Source: Pecten maximus (lineage: Eukaryota). From it: a DNA stretch of 64,000 nucleotides. The stretch covers positions 35,526,001 through 35,590,000 of the forward strand of contig NC_047021.1 of the NCBI RefSeq assembly GCF_902652985.1. The letters run 5' to 3'. This document shows positions 8,098 to 45,082 of the stretch, piece by piece. The notes under the pieces are model-generated. The model worked only from the letters and a program-made list of their open reading frames with translations, ran no database searches and was not told the origin of the DNA. The position numbers were made by a program, and so were the translations under genes. Each line of letters opens with the position of its first letter. Position 1 is the first letter of the stretch.

Positions 8098-8220
8098 TTT
8101 AATTGATAAACTATATAAGGTTAAATGATAAAATGCGTGGACGTTCCTTTTACCTTGAATATTATGCGTAAATTGCGTTTTTTTGTATGTTGAATATCGG
8201 TAGGTAATAATTAAGATCGG

Positions 8221-9130: not shown

Positions 9131-9618
9131 ATAAAGCACCATCAATATTGTGATTTTAAGAATGAAAACAAAACAATGTAAGGTATTTTTTAGATATTTA
9201 TTTATTAAACTTGAGAATTGTTTCCCTGAAAAGTTGTCATATTTTTTCACATACCTATCGTTCACCTTGACTTTATGATTTGGTTTGGGATAATGTAAAA
9301 AACGGACTTGTGTAAGTCTAGGGAAAATATCGTGATATCATATAATTATATAGGAATATATCATATATACATGTAACTGGTTTGATAGGCTGCCTCAGGT
9401 GTTGTATGAAGGCTGTAATACCTGTTATACATATCATACGCATGCACATTATAAGTTTCCTTATCAATAATAGAGTATAGACCCAATACACAGACACATT
9501 CGCTTGCTGACACACATACCACGGTGATGCTACGGTAAACACACATACACACAAACTGGCTGAGCATACCGGATGTGGTGATTCCTAAAGAATTAATCTG
9601 ACCCCACGGGATAGCTAG

Positions 9619-14041: not shown

Positions 14042-16822
14042 ATGGCGACATTGATGTATGTCATAGGTCTGATAGGCATCGCTACTTGTGCCAGAACTGG
14101 ATCGCATTTGCAGGAACGTTTTCTTTTCCATAATGTTTTCCCGGACCGGATTAATCCTAACTCTCTTCAGAAACTTTGGTGGATCCGGAAAATGTCTCCA
14201 GACTTATATTTGACGGGACGTCTCACGGACAGACAAGTTAAGTATGCGTCCGAGGGGGGATTCAGAACCATTATTACATTATTCCGTTTCAATTCCCCGG
14301 GACAATTGGGACTGGAGACATTCCCGACGACAGATGGGGCGAAGTTGATGGCAAATAGTCTAAACATGAATTTTCGGGCGATATTAGATTCAGAAGACGA
14401 CTGGTATAAAGTGAGTACCATTGAAAAGCTGTCCAAAGCCATTAACGAGATGGAGAAACCAATTCTTCTTCACTGCCATCGTGCACATACCATTACATTT
14501 GCTACATTGATGTATTTGGCTAACCAAACAAGATACGATCCTAGCTTTCGTCCAAAAATTACGAGTGACGTCTTTTATCAAGAAAGTGCATCTATAGGTT
14601 TAGACTTTACGGCAAATAAAACGTCAGAAGTTGTATCGAAAATCACCGGAAGTAAAGTACCGGAAGTGTTTCCGAGGACGACAGCATATCCGACAGAATG
14701 GTCGAACTATTGGCTGGTTCATTTCGTTTACAAAAATTGGTTTGTTGGAGGGCAGATCCACTCCACACATCTATCTGCTATCGTCGACACTGGCATTAAA
14801 CATATCATCAACTTACGGTTAGGAGTCTCAACACACAGTCGGGCGTCACAGGAACCTGTCACATTGCTTAACATCGTGGACGGCACGCCCACCTACGGAA
14901 ATACCACGCTTGGGCCTCGACAATCTCCGGAAACGCTGATCAGAACTAGAATTGATCTTGACAAACCGACTACTTACATATCCGAAACGTCGCCGGTGAA
15001 CTATGAAGAGAGGAACTCCCTGGAGTTTGGAGACGAAACCGGATATAATGAAGACATGGAACAAACTGCTGTGGAGAAAGCTGGATTGACCTACCATCAC
15101 CTTCCGCTGGGTAAGTGGTCGTCTTTTCCTGTAACACGAGACCAACGTCTGCTCCCCATCTCCATATTGAGGCAAGTTGGTTTATTTTAAATTATATTAT
15201 TCAATGGTAATGTTGTAATGCTTGAATGGTTTGTTTTTGTATTCTCCCAGATTCTCATAATTGACTTGTATTTTGTTCAATTTCAGTCAGAGCGTGTCCC
15301 AATGTGTTATTTTACTTTCTTTTGTACTCCAATTATAAGGTGTTATTTGTTTTCACCAAAATTACGAAAGTAGAATATGGAAAGACGCCCAGGTTAAAGC
15401 CTTTCAATGTGTTTGTTTATGAATATAAAACTTTATCAGGTTAAACTTTATGATACCCTATGGATTATCCTCATATAATTTCTACCAAATCTGCTCAGTT
15501 ATGCCAAAATTTCATAAATAAGTATAAGTATGTATAATAAACATCTAAAAATCATACGATATATATTTTGTAAATTTTATCATAAAGGTAAATTTTGAAA
15601 TTTCGTCATTGTCTTTTCTGAAAAAAATACGGTCATATGTATATTTTCATCATTGATGTTTTACGGGAGAAGACTGGAAGCAAACACGGGCGCGCCGAGC
15701 AACATTCCCAGATTATCCCAATACCGAGAAGTTTCACTGTCAATTCCGGATGGCTTTTCGCAGTTAATCTATATGTAATTGTTGTCTAGCGGACACACAT
15801 TGACCCTGTAAATGATATTTTGATTTTACCAAATCCTTTTCATTGCCTTCGTGGCAACAACCAGTGCGTCTGATTTCATCACAGGGAATCGAGAGACACG
15901 ATGGCATTTTATCGAATTTCAAAATGGCCCCCAAAACGTCTCAAAATGTGCTATACACACTAGGGAAGGTCCAAATACATGTAGACTGTAACTAATTCTC
16001 AAGTCCCTGTGACAGAATCTAATATCTGTAGTTCCAAGCAAGTCATGTCCTACCCACATACCCTGATCGCATTATAACACAGATACCATCCAACTAATGA
16101 AAGTATATCCCATTTCTTACAGACGAGAATCGGCAATACAGCAGGGAGTTGTATTCCGAATTTAAAGATAAATTTATGGAGGTCGGACAGACTGGTGAGC
16201 CAATCATCTTACACTGCTCTGACAGCAGACGTGCAGGTAAGGTATTACAAGATTTAGTTTGTACTCAGTTACACGGAAGGTTCAACACAAGGTCACAGAA
16301 ATTGTACAGATCATGGTGGAGTGTCATAATTTGTTAAGACCTTTTTGAATCTTCAAGACTTGTGTTTAGGTAGCAATGCTACGTCATTTCAGAGCCATGT
16401 TGAAATATGTCATTGGATTTCCCCTCACATAACACGCATTGTCACTTTGGATTGTATCTCCATTTATTTATTTAATAGGCTCTACCAATGAAAAATTACA
16501 TGTGCATAGGCATATCTTTAAGTTTGTTTCATATAGAATATACATGGAAAACCTCTGCACTGTAAATATTCTATTACCCGTATATGAACGCAGTTTTACA
16601 GTAACATAAGCCAAAACAGTCGTTATATGTATTTTCTTTATCCTATATATAGCCTACATGACGGTCCTCTCTGCAGCACTCCAGGAGGGTCAGCATTTAC
16701 AATGGGCTTTGGCCAAACTTGACGAGATAGGGTTTCCAATAGGACCGCTGGTCAAACCGGACGTATACAGTATGTATGTCGCGTGGTTGACCGATTCCAT
16801 CAGCAATGAGACTGGCCGCTGA
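14042..16822 (+). CDS. Predicted secreted tandem DUF442/TIGR01244-like (PTP-fold sulfurtransferase/phosphatase-like) protein, copy A (450 aa). Exons 14042-15110, 16123-16236, 16653-16822
   Basis: Hydrophobic N-terminal signal-like peptide. Two repeats of the pattern (G[RQ]...G[FI]xx[IV]IxL...xGxxYxxxP...P[IV][IL]LHC); second active loop HCSDSRR (CX4R). Phase-1 introns with canonical sites, and exon 2 is 114 nt as in copy B. Confidence 0.88.
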
Positions 16823-18752: not shown

Positions 18753-21700
18753 ATGCAAAACGGAAGTTTGTTACCAGAAGGATCCACAAGAACCGGAAGT
18801 GTTCTAAACGAAAGGATGCAACAAAATGGCGGCAGATCCTGTCAAATTCATGAAGAGACAACGCCAACACATACAATGGCGATGGCTGCCCTTCCCAAAC
18901 CCGTGGCCGTCGTCTGCTGTGTGTCGAATTTCGCCTTTCCGGGACTTGGTAAGAAAAAATAGCATCACATTACGCATGCGTACTCACTTCCAACATTATA
19001 CATGACGTGCAGTCCCCTGAAGCATATTATGCTGCATTGGAATGTAGGTTTTGTGTAAAAAAGCTTATGTTATTCTCGTTACTTTGTGTTAAAAAAACGT
19101 CAAGGTCATAACTGTTTGTCAAGGTCAAAAAGATTAACAATGAAACAGAGACTTGGCACGAATTTTCAACCCATGGTCCATATTAAATGTATTGAATATG
19201 TACCGTGTATAGACCATGGGTTGGAAATTCGTGCCAAGTTCCTATGGTAGAGGATGTGTTCAAACGAGATAATGTTATGTTGATAGCAATAATTCTGTGC
19301 GAATGGAAGACTTGATGATGTCTGAACAGATAAAGCCATTTTCTAACTGTCAGGAAAATTGTTGACATTCCATGTAGACTATTTTCTTCTCTTTCTGTTG
19401 TTATTGTTAGTTACTAACATTACATCATTCCATACTCTCATAGAGTAAATGACGTCACAACAGAGCAAATTACGTCATACACTGTCTAAAACATTTTTTC
19501 ATCGTACATTTATATAAAGACATGTACATGTATGCAAACAATAACAACCAACATAACAGTTTGATATGTAGGAATATTGCAAGGTTTGAAATGAAATAGA
19601 ATTCGTTGTAAATTAAGCTGACTGATGTCAGCACAGTTCAGTCAACCCCGGATTTTTGAAAACATGAGTAATTTACAAACGTATTTTATCAAAATTTGAT
19701 TTTATAAAATATTTATAAGAAACAAGATTAAGATATAGCATAAATGCTACAAAAGAAGTGATGTTTTGAAAGTTTCAGATATCAAGAACTAACAATTACC
19801 AGAAAAAAAATAATATTTAATATTGTTAACCTAACAATGCTTCTAAAATGCCAAACCGTTGTCCGATCTGGCCAATTACGCCATTGCTATACATAAAGAT
19901 AACAAGCAAAGAAAAAGTCAGCTTAACCTTTGTAAGTGTTAACAACAGTAAAATTGTACACAATGCTTGTTAGTGAGAAAGGCATTCAACCGGACAGGAG
20001 AAACACTCTCCGGTTTAAATGATTTCATTCAATTTCAGCGACATGGAAAGACAAATACTTAATCTCCTTTAAAGAGGTAACAACACATGTTAAGTAGTGG
20101 TTGGATCCTTACGAAGTTAAACCGATAAACATTCTTTACAGAAAAAAAAACAAGTATGTAAACATAGCTGAATGTCGTTAAATGCTTATGTGTCTCGTAA
20201 TAGAATTAAAGGGGTATTCCTTCGTTTGAATAAAGTTTAGGTCGTCAAAATGGAACTTAACGGAAAACATGTATTTTCCCCCAAGTAGTGGAAGTTATAA
20301 TCTTTACATTAATTCGGCAGTTTTACTCGTAAGGTAAACCGAAGTTCTGCAAGTATTAAGTCCTAAATATTTTGAATTCGCTAATTACCGCAAAGACAGA
20401 CGGTATTTGTGTTAGTTTAGTTTAGTTTAAACGTATTTTATTGTAACAAATTTACAACAGGATTGGGCACAAGTTATTACAACTTATAAACGCCCTCTCC
20501 TAACACAGTGACATATAAATAATTACAAAATGCTATAAAACACATATTTAGTATTAAATAATATATGTATATTTTTTTATAGAAAGATGGAGAGAGAGAG
20601 GGGGGAGAGAGAGATAGAGAGAGTGAGGGGGAGAGAGAGTGGGGAGAGGGAGAGAGAGATAACTTATGGATGGGCAATAAAAATGTACAAAATAACACAA
20701 GCAACAATGGTATACATTCAATAACGTATAACGCATATAACAAACAAGTAATAAGGATAAACATTCTCATTTCAGACACAATGGATACACGTTTTACTTT
20801 AGAATATAAATCGATTGATTTCTTAAAATCTGTTACTGTCCTTTATGAAATGTTGAACACATAAGAATACTTCAGAATTAATATTAAAAGACATTTCTTG
20901 ATTACCATATAACAGAAAGTCTAAATCTAAGGGTACATGTAAATTTAAATCATCTAACTTCTGAAAGAGAATGTTTCTTTGAATAATGTAACGGCCACAC
21001 TCAAAGAAGAAGTGATGAGCATTCTCACACAAATGTCCACGCGAGCAGCTCGGAGTTTCCGCAAGGTTCACTCGAAATAAATCATAATTTAAAGAACTAC
21101 ACTGGTGCCTAAGCTTCGTGTGACTAATGCTAATTTTGCGGTCACCGATGCCAAAGAAGGGAGGAGGAGAAATCTGATTTCTAGGTTTCAAAGAATTTTT
21201 GAAAATGCTAAGAGAAGCCGACGATCTGACAGAATGTTCAAGGGTGTTCCAACAACGAAGCGTAGACGGTAAGAATGAAGAGGAAGTTGACGGTAATCTA
21301 CAATATGGGATTCTATAATCATTTACATTTCTCAATGGATACCTAACATTATCTTGAACAGTAGGGGGAAGTAAAGAAAAAAGATACTCTGGAGTTTGAT
21401 CGTTATGCATCTTATACAAAAGTTGGAAGTTTTCTCCTCTTTCTTCTAGCAGACAAAGTTTCTAAACCAGTTTCAAATTGTAAGGCGTAAACACTTGCAT
21501 ATGATGGAAGACCCATGATAATTCTTGCCGCTTCGCGTTGGGCTTTTTCTAACTTTTCAGATTCTAAATTAGTACATCCATCCCACAATTCACAAGCATA
21601 CTCTAAGATTGGTAAAATAAAAGTTAGGTTAATTCTCAATAGAGCGTCTCGTCTTAGTATACATTTCAATTTTCTCAGAGTATTTATTTTCTTCATAACA

Positions 21701-24700
21701 GAAGTGTATATAGCTTCTACATGATCTCCCCATTTTACACTAGAGTTTAAAGTAACACCCAAATGCTTATGGCTATCTGTAAAGTCTAAAATGTTTCCGT
21801 CAAATTCAAGATCTAATATTTCATCTAGTTCATTTCTATTCGAGATAAAAAGTACATCAGTTTTGACCGAAGTATTAAGAGATTCAAGATCTCTATTAAG
21901 AATAGTTTGAATTTGAATACAAGAAGAGGAGGAACATTGAAGAGAGGTGTCATCAGCGAATAGACGAGAAGCTGAATAAAAAATATATGCTATATCGTTA
22001 ATGTATATCAAAAATAAAAGAGGCCCTAAGATAGAACCTTGCGGAACCCCGGCACAATTAAGCTCAATTTTGAAACAGACTCGTTAATACATACCATTTA
22101 CTGCCTTTGATGTAAGTAATCCTTTAACCAAACGATCAGTTTACCTCCTATTCCATATGATTATAATTTTACTAATAGACCGGTATATGTGTACAATTTG
22201 TCATTTTTTTTCCTGTACATTTCGGCGAAAATTTCGTTATACTAGTAGACACAAACACATATATAATCCTTGTTCGGACATCATCAATAGAAATTTCGCA
22301 TTTTCTGTTGTCCGAACGAAGGAATGCCCCTTTAAAAGTTAATTATTGCAAAACTCTATAAATAACTTGCCTGTTTTGGGCATGGGGTGGTTGTAGTTAG
22401 TTGTATGAACTATTATTGCATAAACCAGCTAAACAGCGAAACAAAAATGTATTTTTCTGGCACACACCGTACAGCACAAAAAACAATGTCGGTCTTTATT
22501 TTCTTATCTATAATGATAAACACAACACCTGCTCCGGACCTTATTCACCTAATGTAACGACACTTTGTGTACAAAACATGTAAAATTTAGAAGCGGTATA
22601 CATGGGAATAGCAGAAATTGAATAAGATAAATAGATCAATGGAATTTGAAAGTGAAAGTAAATCCATACTATCTCAAATATCACAGCCAGCTGTTTGTTT
22701 TGCAATACGATCGATACGGATTTTTTTTCTCGCAATAATCTGTATCAAAATGTTATAAAGTAGCACTTGCAAAATCAGATAAGACAATGTTATGATAAAA
22801 ACATTGTAAACGTAAAAGCCAAGATTTTTAATGCCGAATCAATACGCATGGGTCTTTGTGTCTATGCTGCAATAGGAGATATCAAGCGGTGATGTTCAGG
22901 GTTTCCGGACTTTTCTTCTCCAAAGTGGAAAAAATGGGGAAAAATAAGAGATTTAGTACATTGTTATTAAGGTACATGTACATCAAGTTTTATGATACTG
23001 TTCTTCTTTTCATTAGACAGACATACATTTTCCGGAAGTCACACCCACAACCGGAAGTTGCATATGCTTGGAGTCAAAATCAACATACAAAGTATTATAT
23101 TTACATTCTGTGTTGCATTTGCCTATATGTCGTTAGTAAACCAAATTGTATTCACGAGACTGTATACTACAATTTACAGTGATTCGGTCAGAGTAGGAAT
23201 ACAGCCCCAGGTGTTGCTGGTCAAAACAATGGCCGCCAGTTACTTTCGGCCTGGAGAGATTTCGAATGCTAGCATTTATTATCCACAAAACAAAAAATAA
23301 AGCAACTTCACAAGTTATGAGAGTAATATTTTATAATTAAAACAAAATGTAGTCAACACAAAATAACTATAAGCACCGTTCTTGATCTAAGAATGATCAA
23401 ATTGTCAATGTCGTCACACTCACAGGGGCTCGTTTCCGAATTTTCAGAAATGTAAGACAACATTAAAAGTCCAGTATTTGTAAAAATAAAAATAAGATAA
23501 AAATCTTGTGAAAAATCGGGAGCATCGACATGGTTTCCGGTTGTGTATGTATATTAGATTTTAGTTTTGTGGTTATTCACTGATGTTAAAGACCTACCTT
23601 ACAAAATCGAGCCCCTGTGAAGTTGAAAATCGTCTGCTAAGTTAGCGACACTGATGTGACCGGTTAGACTGAAATCTTTTTCGAACGAAATATCTTTGGA
23701 ATCGTTTTCACCTACTGTCAAGACGACTTTCATTTAGAATTTAAGAACTGAAATTCTTCTGAAAACAATGTAAATCCAGTCGATAGAAACTGAAGTATAT
23801 CCGAGGAATCGAGTCTGTCCTGTGCAATACCCGTTCAAAGTCGCATCACTTCTAAATGTTAACCGTATAGCATTGCGCCGAAAAACGACTTAGATTTTAA
23901 ACAATCAAAAATTATGCAATTGTGAATAACTTGACGATATCTACAAACGTATATGAAATAGAAAATAAAGCCAAATTTGTGTAAAACCATTGTATGTGTT
24001 TGCTATTAATAACGACATGAGGGACTATATTATTCCTTCTGGAAGTTTCGGCTGTTCCGGTATTTGAACCTGATGACGTCAGTGATAGGGGAAGCGGCAA
24101 ATTTAAACGCGTCTTAAGCTACAGTAAATAAAAAAAAAATATGAATGTAAATATAAGCATTGAACTGTTACCAAATGGTAGTATACAGTCGATATGAATA
24201 CAATTTGGATGACAGATAAATAGAATGGATGAACTATTTATCTGTCAAGTAAACAACCGGAAGCTAATATATTTTTTCGTATTTTCCAGGAACCATGATG
24301 ACTGGATTTGCTATGTGCTGCTGTGATCGACATGGCGTTAGGAATCGTTCGGATGTGTGTGCTAACTGTACAGCTAACGTTGTGATTGGACTGTTACAAA
24401 TCCTCCTTACCCCAATCTTCCTGCTTGGCTGGTTATGGAGCTGTATGTGGGGAATACTCTTCCTTCGTACCGCAGGTAACTTTATACATGTTATCATTTC
24501 CTTGCTTGAACCGGATGTTGTTAACACGGGAAATAAAGGAGCACACCGTGATATCTGTAACCAAACAGTACTAGGTAGCCCTAGTTTTCTCTGGCCCTGT
24601 CACTATGTCTCGTGTAGGGCCAGAGCGCACTACTATATGAAAACGTGGAATTCTCCGACACCGTTTGGTGTCACTAAGAATCTGGTGCAAATACAATAAA

Positions 24701-29800: not shown

Positions 29801-31743
29801 ATGATAAAATTAACGTCAAATTCCACTAAATATTTTCTATCATTAGTTGTGAGACCAATTTCATCTGTCGTGTCGGATTCTGATAATTTTGATAAACCAC
29901 CTTTTTAAAATTTAGATTCCGAAATTAATTTCAAATGTCTGTTACATAATTTATCGGTTGTGAAATGCAATCTTTTCAAATTCTTCAACCTATCTTGTAT
30001 CATTTAAGTTGTAAAATAAATTCCTTAGGTCTGTTTCGCTGATATTTAACTTGACACTATGCTGTTTAGTATTTATGTGTGTGGAATAAATCACATGCAT
30101 GTGCAATATGGATGTTGCAAAGACTATAATCATTACCTTTGAGGTTGATAAAGTGTTATAATAATCAGGGAAACCTGTTTGAAAAGGGATAAATTGTATT
30201 ATATTTATCCTGTTAACAGGAAATCTATAGGGGCATTTTGACGTCACAATGAAATCCACCACAGTCAGTCTTTCAACACAAATTTATTTACATCTTTATT
30301 TAGGAGCACAGGCGTATGTATCTGGTAAGTAAAACAAAATATAGGGGTAAGGGCTAGATTTGTTTTCTATAATACTTATAATAACCAGATTCAGACGCCA
30401 GTGATAGGAGCTTTCATTTGCCTGCTGTTGTGATGTTAACTTTGTAAATCAGATGGGGGGAAAACGAGGAGATTTACAAAAACTGTGGAGTATAAATGTT
30501 GACTCAAATGTGCATGACTAGTTTTTTATCATTTTAAAAATTAGCCAGAATTACCAGAGACATATATACACATGTGTATATATGTCTCTGGAATTACTAA
30601 TAAATACTTGTCTCTATATCACCTGTTGTTACTATTGATTACTTTAAATTGTCGTCACTCAAACTTTAAAACATTCGCCTGAAGATGGACTCTTCTTGTT
30701 TTTCTAAAAAAATGTTTCTGGCTTATTTATCATTGAAAGCTAGATAACTCTTAGTGGTTAACACACAAATCTTTTCGCCAAATCAATCTGACAAAACAAA
30801 ATGTTTAAAAAAGAATATCCATGATAACAGTTTATCTGTAACATTAGAAATTGGGTTTTTTGAATGCGAGGTAAAAGGATAGGTTGCACATTGATTTTAT
30901 CTCAATATGTGGTATAAGTTTTTCAAGATTCTTGTAATGGCGCGAGGCGTTTAGATGTGTTATGCATGGGGAACGAGATTCACTCTGGAAGAGGTTGTGG
31001 AATAAGTTCAAATCGTGCCAAACACTATGATATAATGTGTAAATAAAGCCCTCTACAAATAAATGTTTAATTTTGATAAGAAAATAACATAAAAAAATTG
31101 TTAGAAAATTGCTAAGAAATTGTTTAGGAATACTTCATTTCACTAGATAGATTGATCAGGACACACTAGCCTCATTTTCTTTCTACCCAAACATTATATC
31201 GTTTTAAGTGTTCTCGTGTCAATTTCCGACGCCACACCTCTTTCATTTGAAATATAATTACACAAGTCTGAAATATAATAAAAATAACTTTTATTTTCAA
31301 TATAGTACATGTGTTTAACAGACTGATCATGATCAATTCTGTAAAAAGAATACTGAATTAGGAACCTTTCACATCAGAAGAGGGATAACTCGGTCTTATA
31401 AATTGCCAACAGTAAGTGTATTGCACTTGGTGCAGAAATCCGTAAAACAATTGTAATTTCCTTCTGACAATAGAAATGTTTATTTCTCTCAAAATCAAGA
31501 GGTTACTTTTCAAGTACAAACACAACACACAACAACGGCTTTGAGAAATGTACTTGCGGCATTTCTCGATGCAGAAATAGGTTCGATTAAGATTTATAAA
31601 TCTAAATACATTGGGTCATCTTTTGTCATACTTCCGGTTCACGTTCTGGTGCTTCCGGTCTACATTTATCATTCAGGCAACCTTTCACTTAAATGCATTT
31701 TGTCATAGACTGTAAAACAGTAAGATAGCTTAATGTATCCGGG

Positions 31744-31812
31744 TAGCACGAGTTTCCTCAGGCCCTGACACCATGTGAGACATGGTGTCAGGGCCAGAGG
31801 AAACTCGGGCTA
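31744..31812. mobile_element. 69-bp palindromic miniature element with 9-bp target-site duplication
   Basis: GTATCCGGG|TAGC...GCTA|GTATCCGGG with a near-perfect 33-bp stem. A degenerate relative lies at 24576-24632. Confidence 0.8.
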
Positions 31813-32426
31813 GTATCCGGGTTACAAAGGACTAGAAAATATAAAACGATAAAATCATGTAACATCCAAAACACATTTTTTGTACAATGCTATTTCAAAC
31901 ATTGATTCCTTGATTTCCATTTTCTTGATACGGAATTCGAAACAGTTCATTGAGTTATGAATACATAAAAAGTTATAGTATATGTATATAAACTGTAAAA
32001 TATGGCATGTTTGGGCAGCATCATCAATAGCACGTTCTTCAAATACGGTGTTCAATACATACAATATAAAATCTACTGATTTACACAAGTAATCATCATT
32101 ATCGTATCATCATTTTTTATAATTCAACTCGTTAATAAAAATGACACGTGGTGCATCACTTTCTATTTTCATTTATGTTAAGGAAGAAGCTTGTACAAAC
32201 ATAACCTGTTGCCTTATTCCAGATTAAATCTTTTTGATTAACAAACTATTTCAAAACAATAGAACAAAAATAAAGTAAGTAAATTATGTTTGACATTGAT
32301 GATTTTTAAGTAACAAAAATGCATGTATATTGTTTCTTAAATGTAATTAATACAAAAATCATATTTTTATATGGATTTTAACGGTAAATATGTATTAAAA
32401 TTATACAGGAATTTTCATGAAGATAA

Positions 32427-35400
32427 TCACAGTTCGTCTTTGGTTGAGTTGAATTTCTTGGTGTCTAACCAGGCTGCGTACATAAGATACACGTCCTTAT
32501 GTTCGGTGGGACTAACAACAAACCCGAGCTCGCGCGTCCGCTGTAGGGCCCAGTTAAGGTCCTTGTTGTACTGTAGGGCGGCGGCCAGCACCGTCATGTA
32601 GGCTGTGGATTGTAACAGAACAAGGCAATGTAAAAATGGTTAAATTGTATCAGAAAAAAAACAACGTTTTATCCAACAAAGGAGAAAACAACTTTGTTGA
32701 CACAATTTTGATTTTATTTTCCAAAGTATGATAGTATCAAAGTAAGAAGTAGAAGAAGAAGTCAAGTTTATCTGTTTATAAAGATGGCACCATTTTAGAT
32801 ACTCAAGTTAAATATTACTCTAGATATCATGGCATAATCGCTCTAATTTTCTTCACGATGTGAAAGAAACCGGATGGACAGCATTTCTGTTTTACATACC
32901 GGAAATGACGTCAACTACATTCCGGCCTACAAACAGGTTTCTTGTGGTACTGATTGATTTATTTCCGAAAACTTGCCATGGTAGCCGACTTTAAAATTCT
33001 AACCAGTCGCCTCTTTGTGGCCTGTGATAATGGTCTGATGTTCTGGTCAGTTTTCTGGTCAGTTTAAGCGGAATACTGTATATACTTACCCACTCTGTGG
33101 GCGCTAGCACAGTGAACTAGGACAGGCTCTCCCGTTCTCCCGATCTCCAGTAACTTATCCTTGTATTTCCCGAATAACTCCGGACTAAACTTTCCACTGG
33201 ACACTGCAAATACATGGAAATTAGTAAAATTATATCCACAGGAAACCGAACATATTTGACTCAAAGATTAGTAATATTTATGACACTTTTGTATTTCACT
33301 CATGAAAGACTGTTCCGGCGTTTTTTCATTAAGAGTTTGTTCCCCTTGGAAATATTTAGTACTCCCCCATCCCAACATTACCTTAGTTATAAGCTTTGCG
33401 TTCATACCAGTAACGTAATACCCCCACAGTGACTTTTCTCTGTAGTAAGATGATTAGATCATAGATGCTCGACTTCTTTTAATAATACATATAAGTCATC
33501 CATAAAGGCATTTAATCAAAAATGTTGTGTCGTCGTTGAAAAAAAATATGTGAGAATCCAACTTTAAGATATATAAGTATCACGATTATGTGGACAATTT
33601 CTAAGTGCAGTCAGGGACCTCTCTATTTAAACGGTGTACAATGTACCTGAGTTTACTCATTTTCGCTTTAAAAAGTTTTAATCGCAACCTAGCATGAGCG
33701 GTATTTCATGGTAGGTAGGTGTACATGTACGTGTGTCTTATCAGTAACTACCGAGGTTAATTTTTAAAGGAGAACTTTCAATATTATTACGCTGTGCGTT
33801 TTATGTTTGATAATGTTTAGGGTGATATTTACAGTTAATTATTAAACGAAACTATGCAAATGTTTGAATGTGTGTTTAAAAAAAAAAAATACAAATGTAA
33901 TAACATTTGTTAGACACACCTTTGGTTTTCGTATGACGTCATTAAAATACCTGTATGCAAGCTACATAACTATACACAATGAATATGCATTTGATCTTAA
34001 TGCACTTAAAAATAAATTTTATTTATTTAACAACATTTGTGAAGCAAGTTATATCAACTTATATCCATCACGCTTGTTGGCCATATTTGAAGCGCGCGAG
34101 GGGTCTTACTGTGGGAGGAAATCGGGAGTACCTGGGGAAAACCCACGTGGTCAGGCAGGTGACCCCAATATCTTTTCACGCCCGATCGCGAGAACCAACC
34201 CCGGCCGCATATTGTATAATCCTTATATACCAAATATTATCGCTGTTATATAAACCTGTTATTATACTATACATTGGTCAATTACACTGTCTTACATATA
34301 TATACATTGAATATCAATATCAACACCACCATATGAACTGGATATAATCATTATTATGTGAAACACTTTTTTTCACAAATATACATGTATGTACTGGATA
34401 TTATCATCAAATCGGATAACACCACTGTTGTAATCTAAAATATATGATATAATTATATTTTAGCACAAATCAACGTGCGGGAGGGTAAATATGGCACTAT
34501 TGCTTCTTTGTTTAAAATCATACTATGGTTAATTAATTAATATTCAGCCTTATATCACAACGGTTTTTCTGGTCGTTGTAATATTTTTGTAGAATAGATA
34601 TAAAATCCAAAGATGTTGAAGTATGGTCCAAGATATCGTATTTATTAAACTAAACTTTCTAGGAGTCAGGCGGGTGATTTACGGAATATCCGAAAATTGA
34701 CCCGTGCAGTCCGCACTCTAGGTTTTAATTAATTTTACAAAACGTTACACATGGTATTAAGCTGGAGTTAATGCAATAATTGACAGGTGGCATTTTGTCA
34801 CATTTCAGACTGGCGAGATACCCGCGGCTAGGTGTCATACCTGGCCAGACCAGTTAAGTAACTCAATTAACATCAAAAGATAAAAGTACATACATATTAC
34901 GTGGTTTAATCCGATAACAATGAGAAAAAAGGAATTATGCATATCACTTTCAAAAGACATATTGCTTGTTGAGATGTAATCAAATGATTTTTAAATAAAA
35001 CATTGAACAAAGCGAAATAAGACGGCGAATAAATTCAAAATTATGAAAAATGTAAAATGTCCAATAAATGTTCCTATTATCACTTATTTCATAAAATTAA
35101 CTTTGGAACTTAGATCAATAAAAAAGAAAAGAAAAAAAAAAAAAAAAACATTGATGAATACATCAAATAATATAGCAAACGATAAACCTTGTATTGAAGG
35201 TTCACATTATGAATGTATTGCGTCATTAAGCATTAAACTCGTAGACATCACAGTCAGTGTATTCTCGCTGACCTGTCTCCAAGGATACACACGTGCATGT
35301 GTAAAACATGTTTTACTTACGGACTGGCATGTGATAATAATGGAAACCCGCCTTTTCCAGAACCTGTCTTTCTCGATCTTCATTATAGCCTATCTCGTCT

Positions 35401-36404
35401 CCGAACTCTCCCGGATTTCTCGACTCGAAGTTCACGGCCGAATTCTTGGACACAAAGGTCTTGTTTTTTGTTGGGTCAAGGACAAGTTTCGTTAAAGTTT
35501 CCGGGATTTGTCGCGGACCTGTCTCTTTGCTGCCGTACGTCGGTGTGCCGTCTTTGACGTTGATGAGAGTTACCTGCTCTTGGGAAGGATTTCCGTTTTC
35601 GTCCTGAACACCCATTCTCATGTTGATCACGTGGATAAAGCCGGCCATTTGTAAAGTTTGAAGATGACTTTCGCTTATTTGTCCAGCTGTGAACCAGTTT
35701 TTATAGACAGGGTGGGCCATCCAGTAATCATACCACTCATCTGGCACAGAGTTTGGTTCCGGTAAATTCTCTGGAATTGCTTCTCCAGTAACTTCCGCTG
35801 CAGTCATTTGCGTAAAGTCCATAGCAAAATCTAAACCCATGGCGGCAGCCATCTTGTATACTTTTTCGAAACTGACTTGAGGTATGTAATTTTGGTCGTG
35901 TTTTGAAGCGTTGGCTAAATACATCATAGTCACAAACGTTATCGTGTATGCCCGGTTACAATGAAGTAAAACAGGCCTTTTCAAGGTAGGAATAATGGCA
36001 GACATTTTATTTACAGCTTCGATCGATGCCCAATCGCAGTTGTCTGTCTCTAATACAACCCGATACTCGAGTCCTGCTTGCTTGGCGATTTCAGCAGCTT
36101 CGGCACTCGTAGGAATGTATTCATCACCGATACTGGATGGCTCATCATCTTGGAAAAGCGACACAATGCTTTTAAATCCTCCGTCTGCTGCATATTTAAT
36201 TTGTCGTTCGGATAACCTGCCAGCGACATGGAAATCTGGCGTTATTTCCTTGGCCCACCATAGTTTTTTAGGGGCTCGAAGTCCCGGGGCACTTCTCTGT
36301 AGAAATGTGTCAACATAGACGCTATTTGAATGTTGTACATCGGCTCGCACTGACGTAACGCATAATTGAAATGTCAACAAAATCAGTGTTAATATTCGAT
36401 ACAT
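32427..36404 (-). CDS. Predicted ER-luminal (signal peptide + KDEL) tandem DUF442/TIGR01244-like protein, copy B (457 aa). Exons 36404-35321, 33203-33090, 32602-32427
   Basis: Signal peptide MYRILTLILLTFQLCVTSVRA. Donor C|gtaagt. Exon 2 (114 nt) encodes GEPVLVHCASAHRV (CX4R). Exon 3 reads AYMTVLAAALQ...FNSTKDEL*. Exon structure is identical to copy A. Confidence 0.92.
34050..34210 (-). mobile_element. V-SINE remnant
   Basis: Minus strand GTGGGTTTTCCCCAGGTACTCCCGATTTCCTCCCAC matches the conserved V-domain core, preceded by a degenerate B-box-like stretch. Confidence 0.75.
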
Positions 36405-36467
36405 GTCTCAGATCACTCAAAACTGTACCTTTATCCGAATGCTAGATACCCGAGTAATCCCGAATGG

Positions 36468-36505
36468 TGACGTGGCTATATATATCTGACTTCCTGTGCA
36501 CGTGG
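36468..36505 (-). promoter_or_regulatory. Putative core promoter of copy B: TATA box with adjacent TGACGTGG (UPRE-like) and CCACGTG motifs
   Basis: TATATATA at 36477-36485, about 75 bp upstream of the ATG. TGACGTGG at 36468-36475 and CACGTGG at 36499-36505. Confidence 0.45.
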
Positions 36506-36773
36506 AAACACCGAAGCTGATATAACTTTCTTCATTCATATATACACATTCACACACAAATTAAAATCGATTATTGTTACATCATCTCGTAGCAGACTTG
36601 TTATGTTTCATTTTAACAGAAAATCAGCACTATCTACAGGGTTACGACGTTACCAGTTTCAATGGCTTGTCCTTTACGATATCCGTGTATACTGCACAGC
36701 TGCGCTTCTCACGCAAATCCATCACGTATACAGCTATGTGTGTGTGTGTGGCGTGTGTTAGGTGGCATGTTGT

Positions 36774-37953
36774 AAATTTCGGACTCGTCACGATCCATTT
36801 TTATTCTGGTATCTTTGGACATAAGCTGTAATTGATTGCCTACCCTGGTGCTTCCAGCCGAGAAAGAACCTAACAACAATTGTCACCAACATAAATTATA
36901 GACAATATGAATTAATACACATTTGCAATTATAGATTTCTTATGAATCACAATTATTACCGAATTATCACAGTAAAACTATTCGCGATTATATGATCATC
37001 GGGTTTGTGAATGGTTCTTTATGACGTGTTATTTCAACACCCTTTTAACCATGCAAGCTATAGCCAAGTGACGTCGACATTACCATAAACCAATATCAAA
37101 TTTCGGACTCGTCACGATCCATTTTTATTCTGGTATCTTTGGACATGTTGAAAATTAGTCTTTAATAATTCGATCTCCCGTAACGCATCGACATCTTCTG
37201 TTATTGGTGGAGATTCATTTTTCGTTCCGGTGTTTTAATACAGTCAGACTTGGTTTATATCAATACGATCTCGTGACATAACACTTAAAAATATTAGTCG
37301 ATGTTAGTCTAGACATTCCAATGTGTTTGATCTGTTTATAATGATTTAATCCGTCAATCGTATTAAATGGAATAGCCACGATGACTTTGCACTAACGATC
37401 AAATCCACGGTCCAATATATATACACACGTTCAGACTGTTGGGTCCGATATTTCTCCCGGTGATATGTATTCTATCTTTACTTACTATCGCAGTCCCTTA
37501 GCCACTTACTCCGTGACACATAAGTCATGTCCTTAGCGATGTTTTGAACAGCTTCTGCGGCTGTGCCACGCCAGCTGACCCAGTTAAAGGTTTTATTACT
37601 ATATTTTTTGTGGCCTATGATACAGAGGCTGAGATACACTATGTACAACGTACATGTATGTATATATTCTACATAAGCTGTAATTGATTGCCTGCCCTGG
37701 TGCTTCCAGCCTGACGAAAGAACCTAACAACAATTGTCACCAACATAAATTATAGACAATATAAATTAATACATATTTGCAATTATAGATTTCTTATGAA
37801 TCACAATTATTACCGAATTATCACAGTAAACTTTTCGCGATTCATATGCTCATTGCGTTTGTGAATGGTTCTCTATGACGTGTTATTTCAGCACCCTTTT
37901 AACCAAGCTAGCAAGCTATAGCCAATTGACATTACCATACACCAATATCAAAT
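36774..37953. repeat. Local tandem duplication with internal deletion (A-B | A'-X-B')
   Basis: 36774-36822 matches 37098-37146, and 36819-37101 closely matches 37671-37953. The first copy lacks X (about 525 bp), with ACAT microhomology at the junction. Confidence 0.88.
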
Positions 37954-38829
37954 CATTTTAAAAGTCAATCATGATTTATTTCTGATATTGGTCACTGTCA
38001 AGTTTATTCATTAATTTGGGTCGTTTTGATAACTCTTTGAAACAACAATTTACCGTCAGGACGAATTAAAGGCGTACGATTCATAGCAAAAAGGTTGAAA
38101 AATATAACTACATTTACACCCAAGGAAACTTAAGACGTCGTTGAAAGATTTAAGCATTGTAACACATATGACATTAAATTTGAGTCAAACTAACACACTA
38201 TAACGCGGTTGAAAGTCCTTATAAAATATTACCCTTTGCACATGTATTTTTTTCTTTTCTTAAAAAGAAATTTCGGGCAAAAAGTGCATCTAAACCAACA
38301 TTTAGGTTTAGCATTCTGACTTCTGACCCACGCCCCCATGTTCATCAAAGGGTTCTCCCTGAACTGAGCTTTATAATAAAATTCAAATAAGATATGCATA
38401 TTCAAATAAAGTACATGTATGCCATACTTGAAATACAGAATTAATTAATGAGTACAATTTTGTCTTCATTTTTTGAACATAACCAAACCTTTTTGTCGGT
38501 TCAGGTGTGGTCCAGTTTACAGAGGTTAGATAAGTCGTAGTTACCCCCTGGTAACTTTTATATGATAAATTAAAATTTGAGGTTAAAGAGAGGCAAAATA
38601 CAACACTAAATCTCATACGACGCGAAGATTCGGGCTCAGATAAATGAAATATGAGCAGACCGCATTTTGTAAAAATATATATGATGTATTCTGATACAAT
38701 TAGAACTCTATCATTTCTCAGCACACATTTAGCAATAAAATCATGGCTTGTTAGAATTGTTGATATGTAAACATTTTTATATTTTACGACTAACCACAAA
38801 CCGTGGCAATAAAATTGACTAGACGTGAC

Positions 38830-38980
38830 AGGGTCGACTCTAAAACCATGACAGTAGTGTTTACTTGATTGGCTAAGTCCAATCTAAAACCACGGCATCA
38901 GAGTTTACTTGACTTGACTAAGACCAATCTGAAACCATGACAGTAGAGTTTACTTGGCTTTACTAAGACCAATCTGAAAT
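38830..38980. repeat. About 46-bp tandem repeat x3
   Basis: Recurrent CTAAGACCAATCTGAAACCATGACAGTAGAGTTTACTT motif. Confidence 0.75.
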
Positions 38981-41559
38981 CTTAAGAACGGAGTTGGCTA
39001 GACTTTTGAACCCATGAAAACCCATTTGGGGAGCCCGACTGGTCCTTGCTTTACATTTGCCAACACTCTATCTATACCTACATATGTTCTACAAAGATAA
39101 GACGATTTATAGCACTATGTGAAATAATGGACTAGAAATACATATGGGAAACAAGGAGCTGGAGACAAATGTGACCATTTAAGGGGGTTTTCTATGACAG
39201 ATCAAGACACATTGACCAGACATTTCTTTTCCTTACATTAGTACATTAGAAATGCATGTCTTATATTGTGACAATGATACAAGGCTACTACATATTTGTT
39301 GGAAATGTAAGGTTTCGTAAAAACATATTTGTATGAAAATATAGAATGACTTCTGTTTATGCAATACAGACGTATGTAACCACTTCTTCGTTTGTAACAG
39401 TTATGGAGATCAGAAAGTAAAATAGCACCGTAAACTGAAGCATTTAATACTACAAATCCTGCAGATGTTACTACATAAATGTGAAGATTTATTTCTAGAA
39501 GACCAGTGGATTAAAAACTTTTGCCTTTCTTCCAAATACAGAAAATAAGAAAATGAATATCAATATTATATACAAATATTGTTACTTTTGTTGTATCTAA
39601 TGTTACTCTTTGTCTTTCTCCACTCTGTTTGTGTCCCTCTCTCCGTCTCTCTAATATACATGTAACACCCTATAAAAATGTATATTGTAAAATGCTATTG
39701 AAAAAGGGCTTGATATCAGATGGAAAACCCTATTCCCGAGTATATAAAACATGAGGTAAGGTTTAAGTGTTGTCTAAACAAGCCATGGCCGAAATTTCCC
39801 CAAATCATGTCAGGATAAATTGATGTGAAAATCTCTGCAGAGGTTTTGGGGATTAGAAAATATCAACATGATAGAGAAACTAGAACAAACAAAAAACAAA
39901 CAATAAAAACCCCAGAAAATACTCAAATTAAACTGAAAAAGTAAGTAGACTGGAAAACCAACAGAGATATATTAACGAAACCTTAATTTGAAATAATAAT
40001 CGATAAAACGAGGAGAAATCAACAAAGAGTAGCGACATTATAACGAATAACGAAATCTTAATTTAACTAATAATCGATAAGACCAGAGAAAAAATATACG
40101 AAAAAAGGTTTGCATGGATGACCTTGAATGTATTAAAGGGTAAGCGTCTTCTGCTTCGATGACGTCACCCACAGTACAAATCTAGGCCAAATCTTGGTTA
40201 AGTCACGTTCAACGAATCAACCAGGCATATCGACGAGCTTCAGTCACGTTCAACGGTACCACAAGGCATATCAACGAGCACCAGTCACGTTTGTCAAAGT
40301 CAAATGGTATATGGGAGCAAACAATTTTTCCAATATATACATGTATATATGAGGACTGTTCTATATATGTACGTACGCTACAACAAGAAAACGTGCACTC
40401 TGGACAACAATACTGGTATAAGTATATCTAAAACTACCCGACGTGAAAGTTTATCGATGCTGGACATTCTAAATGGGCATCAGGCGAAAAGATAGAATTG
40501 ATGTTTGTTGGTTAAGGATAAGAAGGAATTCGTATAGACTGATAGTCAACTAAATATTTCTGACATTGAGACTGGATTTATTTTTTTAAGATACTGAAGT
40601 AAATATGTTTCTAAGATGCAAGGAAAATAAATAAAAAACTTAAACAGAAATAGAAACATGTTCCTTTTTTATGATATATATATATATATATTTACAACGA
40701 ATCTGAAAACATGCTTACGGTACATCTCTGAATTGAGAGAATTCCTTTAAGACAGAAAACTGTTTTACAGAGAAAAATATTATATTGCTTGTTTTATTAC
40801 TAACATCACTTAATAAACAACATATATCTAGCCATGAAATCATAACGAGACGATACTATTAAACTGTTCCAATATAGTAGTTAAGCTAGAATTAACAGAG
40901 ATGCAAACCTATTTGGATCAAGCCAATATTTAATTATTTCCAATCCTTCGCTGTAATTTTAATATTTCGTATTAGAAGGAATGAGAAATGATCAATTTAA
41001 ATCTAACTACTCTAACCTCAGCACTAACACTGAAAGTTTACCGAAATTATTACTACAAGGTTATATAGAGGACATTCTAAATATAAAAATCTAAATGTTA
41101 TCAGCGACACATCACAGTATTTACGACTTTTATTTAAACTCCTCGATAACTCGTGGTGACGTTGGAATTGTATCTGCAGTACAAACCTGCCCTCTCATGC
41201 ACAATACAGTGCAGGTCATTCACCGAACTACGCGGCTATGTGCACACATCGTCGGGTCTAGTGCATTTTATAGAACGTTAAAAGCGACGTGCGGAATGTC
41301 ACGTGCATTTTGAGTTCATAATGCTTCATACATGTATGTGTATATACTGTTTATCACAAAATGATATAGAATGACACATGATATGCAAATATGTCTAATT
41401 TACACCAACAAATGAAAGAAGCAATAACAACGTCCTAAATACTATAGAACTTATTCAGGACGCAGTTGATTAATTATTGACAACAATTTTGAAAAATGTA
41501 AAGAAAGTTCAAACTTTTGGAAGGATTGTAGTAGTGTTACATATGTGGTGGAATGGTAA

Positions 41560-42190
41560 ATTATATAACGTTTAGAAAGGGTAGTAGTAGTGTAAAGTAT
41601 GTTACGGTTTGAAGGTGGTAGTAGTGTAAAGTACATGTATGTTGCTTTTGGAGGGTGGCAGTAGTGTAAAGAATGCAGCGTTTGAAAAGGTGGTGCTAGT
41701 GTAAAGTATGTAAATTTAGAAAGGTGGTAGAAGTGTAAAGTATGTAAAGTTTGGAAGGATGGTAATAGTGTAAAGTATAACTTTTGGAGGATGGTAATAG
41801 TGTAAAGTATGTAACTTTTGGAGGATGGTAATAGTGTAAAGTATGTAACTTTTGGTGGGTGGTAATAGTGTAAAGTATGTAAAGTTTGGAAGGATGGTAA
41901 TAGTGTAAAGTATAACTTTTGGTGGGTGGTAATAGTGTAAAGTATGTAAAGTTTGGAAGGATGGTAATAGTGTAAAGTATAACTTTTGGTGGGTGGTAAT
42001 AGTGTAAAGTATGTAAAGTTTGGAAGGATGGTAATAGTGTAAAGTATAACTTTTGGTGGGTGGTAGTAGTGTAAAGTATGTAAAGTTTGGAAGGATGGTA
42101 ATAGTGTAAAGTATAACTTTTGGTGGGTGGTAGAAGTGTAAAGTATGTAACGTTTGGAAGGTGATAGTAGTGTCAAGTACGTAACTTTTT
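41560..42190. repeat. Minisatellite of alternating 35/33-bp units (68-bp higher-order repeat)
   Basis: GGTAATAGTGTAAAGTATGTAAAGTTTGGAAGGAT alternates with GGTAATAGTGTAAAGTATAACTTTTGGTGGGT. Confidence 0.95.
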
Positions 42191-43362
42191 GTATGATATG
42201 TATATATACAAACTATTCTTATTTTCAATCGATCACAATTACTCTATGTTGGAGAATCACAGTTTATTACCACTATTTTTTCCCCTTGTAGTTAAGTATA
42301 TTTTACTTGATTAAAACATGGTATGTATAATTAAGCTATTGAAATTCCTGCCACCTACCGATATTGAAATATCAACTATTTATTTATATGCATGTGCATA
42401 TGAGTAAACAGAACAATTGTAAAATAATATTTATTTGGCCTATCAATGTCACTTGTCAATCACCTGCTATTGTTGTATTATTGACACAGTAACGACGAAA
42501 ACTATCTACATAAGCTGTTAGTGATGTCTGTTGACGAAGACCATCTGGATTATAATATTATTCATTGACTGCACAAATGACACGCAAATTTATACCAATA
42601 TCTTTGATACTCAATTTAATCTTTTATAGATGCGCAATAATGAATATTAGATTACAAAATAGAACTTCCATCACGACATTCCGTATTTATATATTTACAA
42701 AAAAGTCACTGTGTTGTGTCCAGCTGTTTTGATCATTTTGTTTCGCGATAGAACATTTTTATATAGGTAATGCTGTAGTTGTATTTTAGCTGGTTTACCT
42801 TTATAAAGGTGAACCCAATTGTGTAACATATCACAGCGGTGTCAAAACATTTACACGTGCACAAACAAGATGATCATAAGACCTTTCTTAACAATAATAC
42901 GTTTCCCATATATCTACATATATAAAACCAAAATATATATTATTGATATTATTGTTTATGTTCAGAGTTATATGTAACAAATACACTGTATTTGTTCTAT
43001 ACACAAATGCAACAGAGCGAATGGTGACATACATGCAAATATATAGTGATATTTTCAAATGATTTGTCGTTCGGAATTATTCTTTCAAAAATGTAAATAC
43101 GTATTCAAATATACTGCAAAGCTGTGATACGAAGATAAAATTTTATATTTCGTTGTATAAGCAGCAAACTAACTCATAAAATGAGGATGTGATTTAAGTT
43201 TTTTGCATTTTGCAGACATTTTCTCCGGCTGCTTTTGGATATAGCTTCATTGGTGATTCAATTTAACAAAGGTTTAGTTAGAATCGAATAGCTTGCTAGA
43301 TAACTGTAGTGTATGCAATGTTCTGTTCATTACTCGAACACATCTTTGGTAGATATACTTAC

Positions 43363-44449
43363 GGACTGGCATATGGTAATACTGGAACCCTGCTTCTTCC
43401 AGAACCTGTCTTTCCCGGTCTTCGTTATAACCAATCTCGTCTCCGAACTCACCGGAGTTTCTCGCTTCGAAGTTTACGCCCGAATCTTCGGCGATGAAAG
43501 AGTTTTCTCTTCCCGAGTCGAGAACGATTCCTTTAAGGGTGTCCGGGATTTGTCTCGGACCTGTCTCTTTGCTGCCGTACGTCGGTGTGCCGTCTTTGAC
43601 GTTGATGAGAGTTACTTGCTCTTGTGAAGGATTTCCGTTTTCGTCATCGACACCCATTCTCATATTGATCACATGGATGAAGCCATCCATTTTTAACTTT
43701 TCCAAATGACTTTCGCGTATTTGTCCGGCTGTATACCAGTTCTTATAGACAGGGTGCGCCATCCAATAATCGTACCACACTTTTGGTACCACGTTTGGCG
43801 ACGGTACATTTTCCGGGATGACTTCGCCGGTTATTTCTGCAGCAGTCTTCCGCGTAAAGTCCATAGTAAAATCTATGCCCATGACAGAGGCCATCTTATA
43901 AAATTTCTGTATATCCATTCGCGGTGAGTAATTTGGGTCTTGTTTTGAAGCATTAGCCATGTGCATCATTGTTACAAAGGATATCGTATAGGCTCGGTGA
44001 CAATGAAGTAGAACTGGTTTTTCTAAAGTCGGCATGATCGCAGATAATTTGTCCACGGCTTGAACTGAAGCCCAATCTGAATTTCCAGATTCCAGAACAA
44101 CCCGATGCTGAAGTCCAGCGTGTTTAGCAATTTTTGCAGCCTCGTCGCTCGTTGGGAGATACTCATCGCCGATGTTTGATGGCTCATCGTAATGGTACAA
44201 AGAGACAATGCTTTTGAATCCCCCGTCTGCTGCGTATTTGATCTGACGTTCGGATAACCGTCCAGCGACGTGAAAGTCGGGTGTCAATTCTTTGGCCCAC
44301 CATAGCTTCTTTGGAGCCCGTAATCCTGGAGCACCTCTCTGTACTAAGGTATCCACATATGTACGGCTTGGCTGTTGCACGTTGGCAGCTCGTAAAGGTG
44401 AGACGAATAGTCTTAAAGAAACCAAACGTAATGCCAAAGCCAGTGTCAT
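43363..44449 (-). CDS. Tandem DUF442-like protein, copy C: intact first coding exon (1087 nt, phase 1), probably spliced to copy B exons 2-3
   Basis: Colinear with copy B exon 1, same donor (ATGCCAGTCC|gtaagt), many synonymous differences and no stops. No exon 2/3 homologs were seen between 36.4 and 43.3 kb. Confidence 0.88.
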
Positions 44450-44560: not shown

Positions 44561-44574
44561 TATATATGACGTCA
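44561..44574 (-). promoter_or_regulatory. Putative TATA box with abutting CRE (TGACGTCA) upstream of copy C
   Basis: TATATA at 44561-44566, about 112 bp upstream of the ATG, and the TGACGTCA palindrome at 44567-44574. Confidence 0.4.
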
Positions 44575-45023: not shown

Positions 45024-45082
45024 GGTTTGGTTTGGTTTATTTTGTATAACGTCCTATTAACAGTTAAGGTCATTTAAGGATG
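45024..45082 (-). mobile_element. 3'-end fragment of the SINE family seen at 54-54.6 kb
   Basis: AACGTCCTATTAACAGTTAAGGTCATTTAAGGA resembles 54067-54099, with an (AAACC)n tail on the minus strand. Confidence 0.7.

Follow-up and report, generated by a model that had tools for sequence, protein, structure and literature searches.

A scallop gene with alternative first exons and a shared KDEL exon, predicted to encode a DUF442-like sulfurtransferase

A single scallop gene is read from two alternative first coding exons, here called B and C, which are spliced to the same two downstream exons; the last of these encodes a C-terminal KDEL. The gene lies in a 64-kb window of the Pecten maximus genome, the window being the whole stretch of DNA that was analysed. 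We read the locus as follows: the shared KDEL exons belong to a DUF442-type sulfurtransferase, with isoform B in the ER, isoform C possibly in both ER and mitochondria, and the paralog A likely secreted. This joint reading is partly predicted, and we give it an even chance.

Exon structure of the B/C gene

The features of the gene are:
43363..44449, minus: alternative first coding exon C (RNA joint to exon 2)
35321..36404, minus: alternative first coding exon B (RNA joint to exon 2)
33090..33203, minus: exon 2, common to B and C (RNA joints)
33111-33094, minus: domain-2 loop C393-ASAH-R398, in exon 2 (C393 and R398 in 56/56 homologs of at least 415 aa)
32427..32602, minus: exon 3, terminal coding exon common to B and C (AG acceptor, RNA joint 33090-32602)
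32441-32427, minus: KDEL and stop at the end of exon 3 (sequence)
31500..32426, minus: 3′ UTR of the gene, reaching at least to 31500 (RNA contigs of X4 and X7)

Exon B encodes a predicted signal peptide (about aa 1-21), domain 1 (loop C149-NRAYT, sequon N165) and most of domain 2. Exon C is a duplicate of exon B (76% amino acid identity) with an Arg-rich leader (R8, R13, R20, R29) and the loop CHRAYT. The two exons have the same splice phase at their ends. Exon 3 (32602-32427, minus strand) translates as AYMTVLAAALQYNKDLNWALQRTRELGFVVSPTEHKDVYLMYAAWLDTKKFNSTKDEL followed by a stop, with the ending ...KKFNSTKDEL. Spliced B (36404-35321 + 33203-33090 + 32602-32427) has GT-AG boundaries at all introns and 457 aa, and is identical to P0001, which is isoform X2 of NCBI gene LOC117330705 of Pecten maximus. 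Spliced C is identical to P0005, which NCBI annotates as isoform X1 of this gene.

A preliminary description of this DNA had pointed to exon 32602-32427 and its FNSTKDEL end as a missed exon, and to a different end, SISNETGR, in paralog A. The AG acceptor and RNA joints confirmed the exon, and the end of A was as described. The exon was indeed missed by the open reading frame track but not by the annotation: the NCBI models already include the KDEL exon and annotate B and C as isoforms.

The exon 2-3 joint (33090-32602), for which an RNA check had been proposed, was present in contigs of 4/4 runs from three studies. The end of exon C at 43363 was joined to exon 2 in contigs of 4/4 runs (X1, X3, X4 and X7) and the end of exon B at 35321 in at least 2/4 runs (X1 and X7) among the joints listed; this RNA support consists of contigs, and the short side of the first-exon joints is only 20-29 letters. 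Runs X4 and X7 are recorded as RNA, X1, X3 and X8 are presumed to be RNA, and the kind of X15 is not stated.

Between exons C and B (36405-43350), blastn and tblastn found no copy of exon 2 or 3. A genome search gave at least two matches to exon 3 and at least three to exon 1, copy numbers that are lower bounds, and every match was inside the window. The preliminary description had treated C as a third paralog with an inferred KDEL exon of its own. A separate C gene with its own exons 2-3 was rejected, since no such copies were found and RNA splices C to the exons of B. As RNA connects each of the two first exons to one common set of exons 2-3, B and C belong to a single gene as alternative first exons.

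In four scallop genera (Pecten, Argopecten, Ylistrum and Mizuhopecten), isoforms occur in pairs whose tails of 95-102 aa are identical, and in the tree B-type and C-type exons clustered by type, not by species. This pairing and grouping imply that the 1.08-kb first exon was duplicated before the genera split, with the KDEL exon as a constant region. At UGT1A-type loci, duplicated large first exons are likewise spliced to constant exons that carry an ER signal. The scallop locus has the same exon arrangement, but with only two variable exons, a soluble KDEL protein and an unrelated enzyme.

A single AATAAA/ATTAAA hexamer is located near 31480, by the 3′ UTR. A 78-base element within this UTR was skipped in contigs of all four runs and is likely a polymorphic insertion. 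Long minisatellites with 20-base and 34/67-base units occupy 6386-9132 and 41556-42189, the second inside the intron that separates exon C from exon B. Short repeats of high copy number, where RNA contigs have many loose ends, were observed at 31734-31820, 15907-16012, 34089-34167 and 45024-45080.

Conservation of the tail and predicted ER residence of B

The K/HDEL-type tail, on whose conservation in orthologs the preliminary description had relied, is widely kept. Among homologs of at least 415 aa, 42/56 end in EL or DL and 16/56 in KDEL; by family residue frequencies the chance of a KDEL end is 2.8e-5 and that of an EL or DL end 0.012. The tail variants are within the tolerances given in the accessible part of PMC2140024. 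Metagenome matches of 350-413 aa were considered as bacterial homologs and rejected: the alignment stops at the end of exon 1, so we read them as exon-1 ORFs and omitted them from the tail counts.

An xxEL or xxDL tail was found in 38/41 full-length mollusc homologs with a signal-peptide leader, the exceptions being two A proteins and one further record; the exon-1 fragments P0016 and P0023 are excluded from the 41. It was found in 0/8 stand-alone homologs with Arg-rich, weakly hydrophobic leaders, and a ninth, P0255, is also without it. The N165 sequon is present in 38/38 signal-type proteins versus 0/11 Arg-rich-leader forms. The leader and tail counts come from the 91-row set with 7 non-mollusc rows excluded, and some rows were taken as molluscs by their position in the tree. 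Leader type and tail type match family-wide.

By home-made measures, the B leader has a 16-residue uncharged core, a KD9 of 2.84 and a V-R-A end. B thus has the marks of a KDEL protein, with the motif at the true C-terminus and a predicted N-terminal signal peptide, and is very likely ER-luminal. We are confident that such a classical signal peptide would direct ER entry, followed by retrieval by KDEL receptors. The preliminary description had proposed that the family split into ER-resident and secreted enzymes. The leader, tail and sequon of B agree with the first part, and an A without KDEL is real and occurs in Mizuhopecten too. A simple two-way division is not supported, since Arg-rich, mitochondrial-looking forms and GPI-like tails are also found in the family.

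Fold, active-site loops and predicted activity

An AlphaFold2 model of B from 53 sequences (pLDDT 89.5, pTM 0.87) had two alpha/beta domains, with residues 451-457 of the tail disordered. From this model, two domains of the PTP/DSP fold are predicted with high confidence. Structural matches were NMA1982 (2f46; Z 12.7, rmsd 2.8, 140 aligned) and Shewanella DUF442 (3gxh; Z 12.2) for aa 49-206, and Tk-PTP (Z 13.3, rmsd 2.6, 145 aligned) and ShufPTP (Z 13.2) for aa 226-450. The top structural matches, true phosphatases among them, were tied within about 1 Z.

Against the Pfam cut-off of 26.1 bits for PF04273 (BLH_phosphatase), B scored 38.0 and C 32.9; Mizuhopecten A, at 25.1, fell slightly below it, and no PF04273 match was obtained for mussel P0061 or limpet P0225. 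The best NCBIfam matches were the TIGR01244 sulfur transferase (E 2.3e-12) and Blh, with scores under the curated cut-offs (47.1 vs 85.85 and 41.4 vs 625, respectively).

The domain-2 loop is CX4R throughout the 56 homologs, and the domain-1 loop C149-NRAY-T154 (CX4T) has its Cys in 47/56 of them. Compared with the CX5R of TpbA, the loop lacks one residue, and the classical PTP/DSP signature is absent; none of the 56 has CX5R at the domain-2 loop. The acid-loop region of domain 2 (columns 361-369, after P360) is at most 39% D/E. The D124 column in domain 1 is 93% acidic.

B and C share the PTP-like fold and the six-residue Cys...Arg loop with bacterial DUF442/PF04273 proteins (the N-terminal domain of Xylella Blh, an SQR-fused Cupriavidus protein, TIGR01244), as far as the accessible parts of the sources describe these, and pass the Pfam cut-off. 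The scallop protein differs in being a eukaryotic tandem of two domains with some 80 aa inserted into domain 2, a leader, a glycan sequon and KDEL. It is not fused to SQR or a dioxygenase, is below the TIGR01244 cut-off, and its sulfur transfer is predicted.

In the accessible text of the following papers, the Cupriavidus DUF442 domain (loop CRTGTR) has a thiosulfate:cyanide kcat of 4.89/s (PMC8533005); its sulfur transfer needs the loop Arg, and the loop of TST is CRKGVT (PMC8533005, PMC9163753). The DUF442 domain of Xylella Blh is a sulfur transferase despite its PTP fold (PMC5823870). By analogy, the B/C enzyme is somewhat more probably than otherwise a cysteine-persulfide sulfurtransferase. 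In such an enzyme C393, its loop closed by R398, would take sulfane sulfur from thiosulfate, GSSH or polysulfide and hand it on to an acceptor (glutathione, sulfite, cyanide or a protein thiol), in the manner of the Cupriavidus and Xylella domains. Its role would likely be to clear or route reactive sulfane sulfur in the oxidising compartment and, in mitochondria, beside SQOR and ETHE1. The preliminary guess at thiol or persulfide chemistry gains support from the CX4R and CX4T loops and the DUF442 matches; the chemistry itself is a prediction.

With the same gene and the same ER residence, the enzyme could instead be a hydrolase, either a Cys-based phosphatase or one of another kind, resembling NMA1982 or the PTP-like phytases and acting on phosphoproteins of the lumen, on phosphates of inositol or sugars, or on sulfate esters. 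We consider this rather unlikely. It would fit the DSP/PTP fold, the best PDB sequence matches (TpbA and VH1-type phosphatases), the best structural Z scores (Tk-PTP and ShufPTP), the top Foldseek row (a tandem PTP-like phytase) and the conserved D124 of domain 1. NMA1982 is like scallop domain 1 in fold and has the CX4R loop in common; according to the accessible part of PMC10716126, this loop has a measurable PTP mechanism and can hydrolyse phosphate esters, but with a kcat of only 4.4e-5/s, about 1e5-fold below sulfur transfer by DUF442 with the same loop, a comparison between different proteins. NMA1982 is moreover a single domain with the general acid D71, whereas scallop domain 2 has no conserved acid there. 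The missing CX5R at the domain-2 loop and the first rank of DUF442/sulfur transferase in both Pfam and NCBIfam also argue against a phosphatase.

Still less probable, in our judgement, is an ER factor that acts in thiol redox or like a chaperone, for instance as a de-persulfidase or a relay of reductant to client proteins, with A kept in the ER by binding partners without KDEL. Two conserved Cys in an oxidising compartment would suit such a factor, as would the persulfidation reported for the PDI family in the accessible part of PMC12781119 and, in that of PMC2140024, the many ER proteins that stay without the motif. However, the B/C sequence has no CXXC, the loop Arg is invariant, as expected with an anionic small substrate, and the extra sequons, higher pI and long branch of A (see below) fit a changed place.

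For the sulfurtransferase, the domain-1 site C149-X4-T, which no stand-alone mitochondrial-type form retains, would be a second site needed in the secretory pathway. The domain-1 Cys is present in 0/11 Arg-rich-leader forms versus 62/66 signal-type proteins. Ser replaces it in the signal-type proteins P0041, P0047, P0085 and P0100 (Pinctada among them), so a protein of the secretory pathway can lose this Cys as well. Mitochondrial rhodanese TST is also built of tandem domains with an active loop in one domain only, as in the mussel and limpet forms, and its loop CRKGVT ends in Thr like that of scallop domain 1. TST has the rhodanese/Cdc25 fold, which is other than the PTP-like fold here; because the folds differ, the likeness would be convergent.

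The leader of isoform C

Stand-alone forms with Arg-rich leaders were found in mussels and limpets. They represent just two lineages, the first lying within the mussel KTEL proteins and the second in Patella, and Fisher p-values on leader-linked traits therefore overstate the case. From the established features of presequences, we infer that these mussel and limpet forms are mitochondrial. A single origin of Arg-rich leaders was rejected by AU tests, with p 8.9e-5 for all together, 5.7e-105 for C + mussel and 0.023 for mussel + limpet; the tests used 31/91 rows and a quick LG+G4 model, and the groups were named after the first tree had been seen. A genome search found no stand-alone Arg-rich-leader copy in Pecten maximus.

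In the four genera, the C leaders have four invariant Arg, 0-1 acidic residues and a longest uncharged run of 8, compared with 12-17 in B. Conservation over these genera is 0.70 for the C leader versus 0.45 for the B leader, and 0.86 versus 0.83 for the mature parts. A home-made classifier gave mitochondrial-type scores of 0.82-0.92 for C leaders and 0.00-0.19 for B leaders; it made 1 error in 49 by leave-one-out, and its positive class consists of two lineages that were first noticed by their leaders. Arg content and charge of C are in the mitochondrial-type range. Its 12-residue hydrophobicity (1.78-1.99) is within the ER range and above the mitochondrial-type maximum of 1.59. An ESM Atlas search with residues 1-40 of C and B gave no usable match.

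A known precedent is human MsrB3A/MsrB3B, a gene for a Cys enzyme in which different first exons direct the product to ER or mitochondria and the C-terminal retention signal is common to both, as given in the accessible parts of PMC1431549 and PMC6316033. The scallop gene has alternative first exons and a common C-terminal ER signal too, and the mitochondrial address of C is putative. It differs in its unrelated fold and in the size of the alternative exon, a duplicated 1.08 kb that encodes one complete catalytic-type domain and, in all, about 79% of the protein. The chances seem level that the C leader has been remodelled toward a matrix presequence, C being at least partly mitochondrial and its KDEL a passenger as in MsrB3B.

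Alternatively, C could be another isoform of the ER, entering by a weak signal peptide and driven from a separate promoter; the duplication would then vary expression or domain-1 specificity, as with a UGT1A-like variable first exon, and not location. As regards the location of C alone, we place this a little below an even chance. C retains all eight sites that both stand-alone lineages have lost (E66, H148, C149, R151, Y153, T154, N165 and D226) in 4/4 species, so that N165, the whole domain-1 loop and D226 are kept. The 11 fixed differences between B and C, of which several are in domain 1 with N150H in the loop, would also suit an ER-only C, as would the B leader of Mizuhopecten, which already has R13 and R20 and scored 0.19. 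The short uncharged run of the C leaders, their four invariant Arg, near lack of acidic residues and unusual leader conservation speak against this, and clear Arg-rich leaders arose in relatives at least twice more. As judged from the sequence, an address in the ER only falls just short of evenly balanced, a dual address in ER and mitochondria is doubtful, and mitochondria only is unlikely.

Paralog A

The exons of A are:
14042..15110, plus: exon 1, with a signal-peptide-type leader, domain 1 (loop CHRAHT) and most of domain 2
16123..16236, plus: exon 2, with the loop CSDSRR (RNA joints)
16653..16822, plus: exon 3, with the end SNETGR and stop, then a second TGA, and without a retrieval motif (RNA)

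Spliced A (14042-15110 + 16123-16236 + 16653-16822) has 450 aa and both Cys loops, and ends in SISNETGR. Both joints were present in contigs of 3/4 runs. Run X7 gave zero cover of A, which we do not read as tissue specificity. An assembly error at the stop was rejected, because the stop is covered gap-free in X1, X15 and X8 and the Mizuhopecten A ortholog, which ends in EIGRR, is also without xxEL. Read-through to a hidden xxEL was rejected too, as there is none in any frame within 60 bases past the stop.

A was found in two scallop genera only. It ends ...NETGR where oyster and ark-shell proteins continue as ...KTGREEL and ...NETGHLEL; the loss of the KDEL-type tail is therefore likely a derived truncation. 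The two A leaders scored 0.16 and 0.21 with the home-made classifier. Relative to the family, A has more sequons (3-5 vs a mean of 2.45), a higher pI (6.4-7.3 vs 5.3) and a long branch. Without the final 2-3 residues of the ancestral tail, which it has lost, A would probably leave the ER, and secretion of A is predicted with about the same fair confidence. A may nevertheless not be secreted, because in the accessible part of PMC2140024 only 3/16 proteins left the ER for the Golgi after deletion of the motif and 13/16 did not.

The final residues of both A proteins (16814-16822, plus strand; P0074) are Gly-Arg(-Arg), perhaps a side effect of the truncation. We take this ending to resemble a C-terminal amidation signal.

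The wider family

With E 1e-30 as the threshold, a profile search yielded 102 representatives, with distant members in annelids (Owenia, Capitella) and hemichordates (Ptychodera, Saccoglossus, Glandiceps). Among 20 distant proteins picked by eye, 10 have hydrophobic, GPI-signal-like tails (12-residue mean of at least 1.7), and one Owenia protein ends in KQEL. A secretory-pathway location looks ancestral, with ER retrieval mostly molluscan. A distant group of 370-420 aa has signal-type leaders and a conserved terminal Cys (P0142, P0143, P0153, P0154, P0158, P0173, P0174 and P0187).

A broader reading, which we hold only tentatively, is that of an undescribed eukaryotic family of tandem-DUF442 sulfurtransferases of the secretory pathway, membrane-anchored in annelids and hemichordates, in the ER in molluscs, where it would be an enzyme dedicated to persulfides in the lumen, and re-routed to mitochondria on three independent occasions within molluscs. 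Mussels and limpets would each have duplicated the gene and, by convergence, lost KDEL, the glycan site and the domain-1 Cys. In scallops just the first exon would have been duplicated, a single gene then supplying both ER and mitochondria, with A secreted.

KDEL retrieval, DUF442 and address switching by first exons are each already known. In open-licence text, with supplements such as proteome tables outside the search, we found no paper on this DUF442-like family; A or B may be listed in a mollusc proteome. Nor did the search of open-licence text find a paper that brings together sulfurtransferase, rhodanese, persulfide and the lumen of the endoplasmic reticulum. In the accessible part of a scallop genome paper, SQOR, ETHE1, SUOX and TST are listed for sulfide detoxification, with 0 occurrences of DUF442 (PMC13212745), and neither sulfurtransferase nor rhodanese occurs in the accessible main text of a recent review of ER redox (PMC12781119). 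The rhodanese-type sulfur transferases in the accessible parts of the cited literature are bacterial or mitochondrial.

A conserved ER-luminal candidate would make the formation and removal of persulfides in the secretory pathway directly testable, and would fill a gap in how molluscs and burrowing worms handle sulfide. Comparing exons B and C amounts to a natural experiment on how small a number of substitutions can convert a signal peptide into a mitochondrial presequence. Should the enzyme prove to be a phosphatase and C be confined to the ER, what is left is the correct annotation of an uncharacterised ER protein.

Promoter motifs and neighbouring genes

The palindrome TGACGTCA, which we take to be CRE/ATF-like, occurs 16 times in the window against 0.79 expected; the copy at 44567-44574 abuts a TATA-like box directly upstream of exon C. 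The motif TGACGTGG, presumably UPRE/XBP1-like, has its sole window copy at 36468-36475, some 65 bases ahead of the B start codon. We gave no weight to it, since one match compares with 0.90 expected in the window.

At least three genes for small membrane proteins of the Spec3 family (PF15795), whose tails are Pro-rich with PPPY, are interleaved with the DUF442 locus (38-322, 9619-11057 and 24268-24699, all on the plus strand). A broken LINE-like element is located at 20823-22083 (minus), with a weak RVT_1 match (E 6.4e-5) across two frames. At 61124-62836 (minus), an ORF of about 546 aa encodes a LIM domain.
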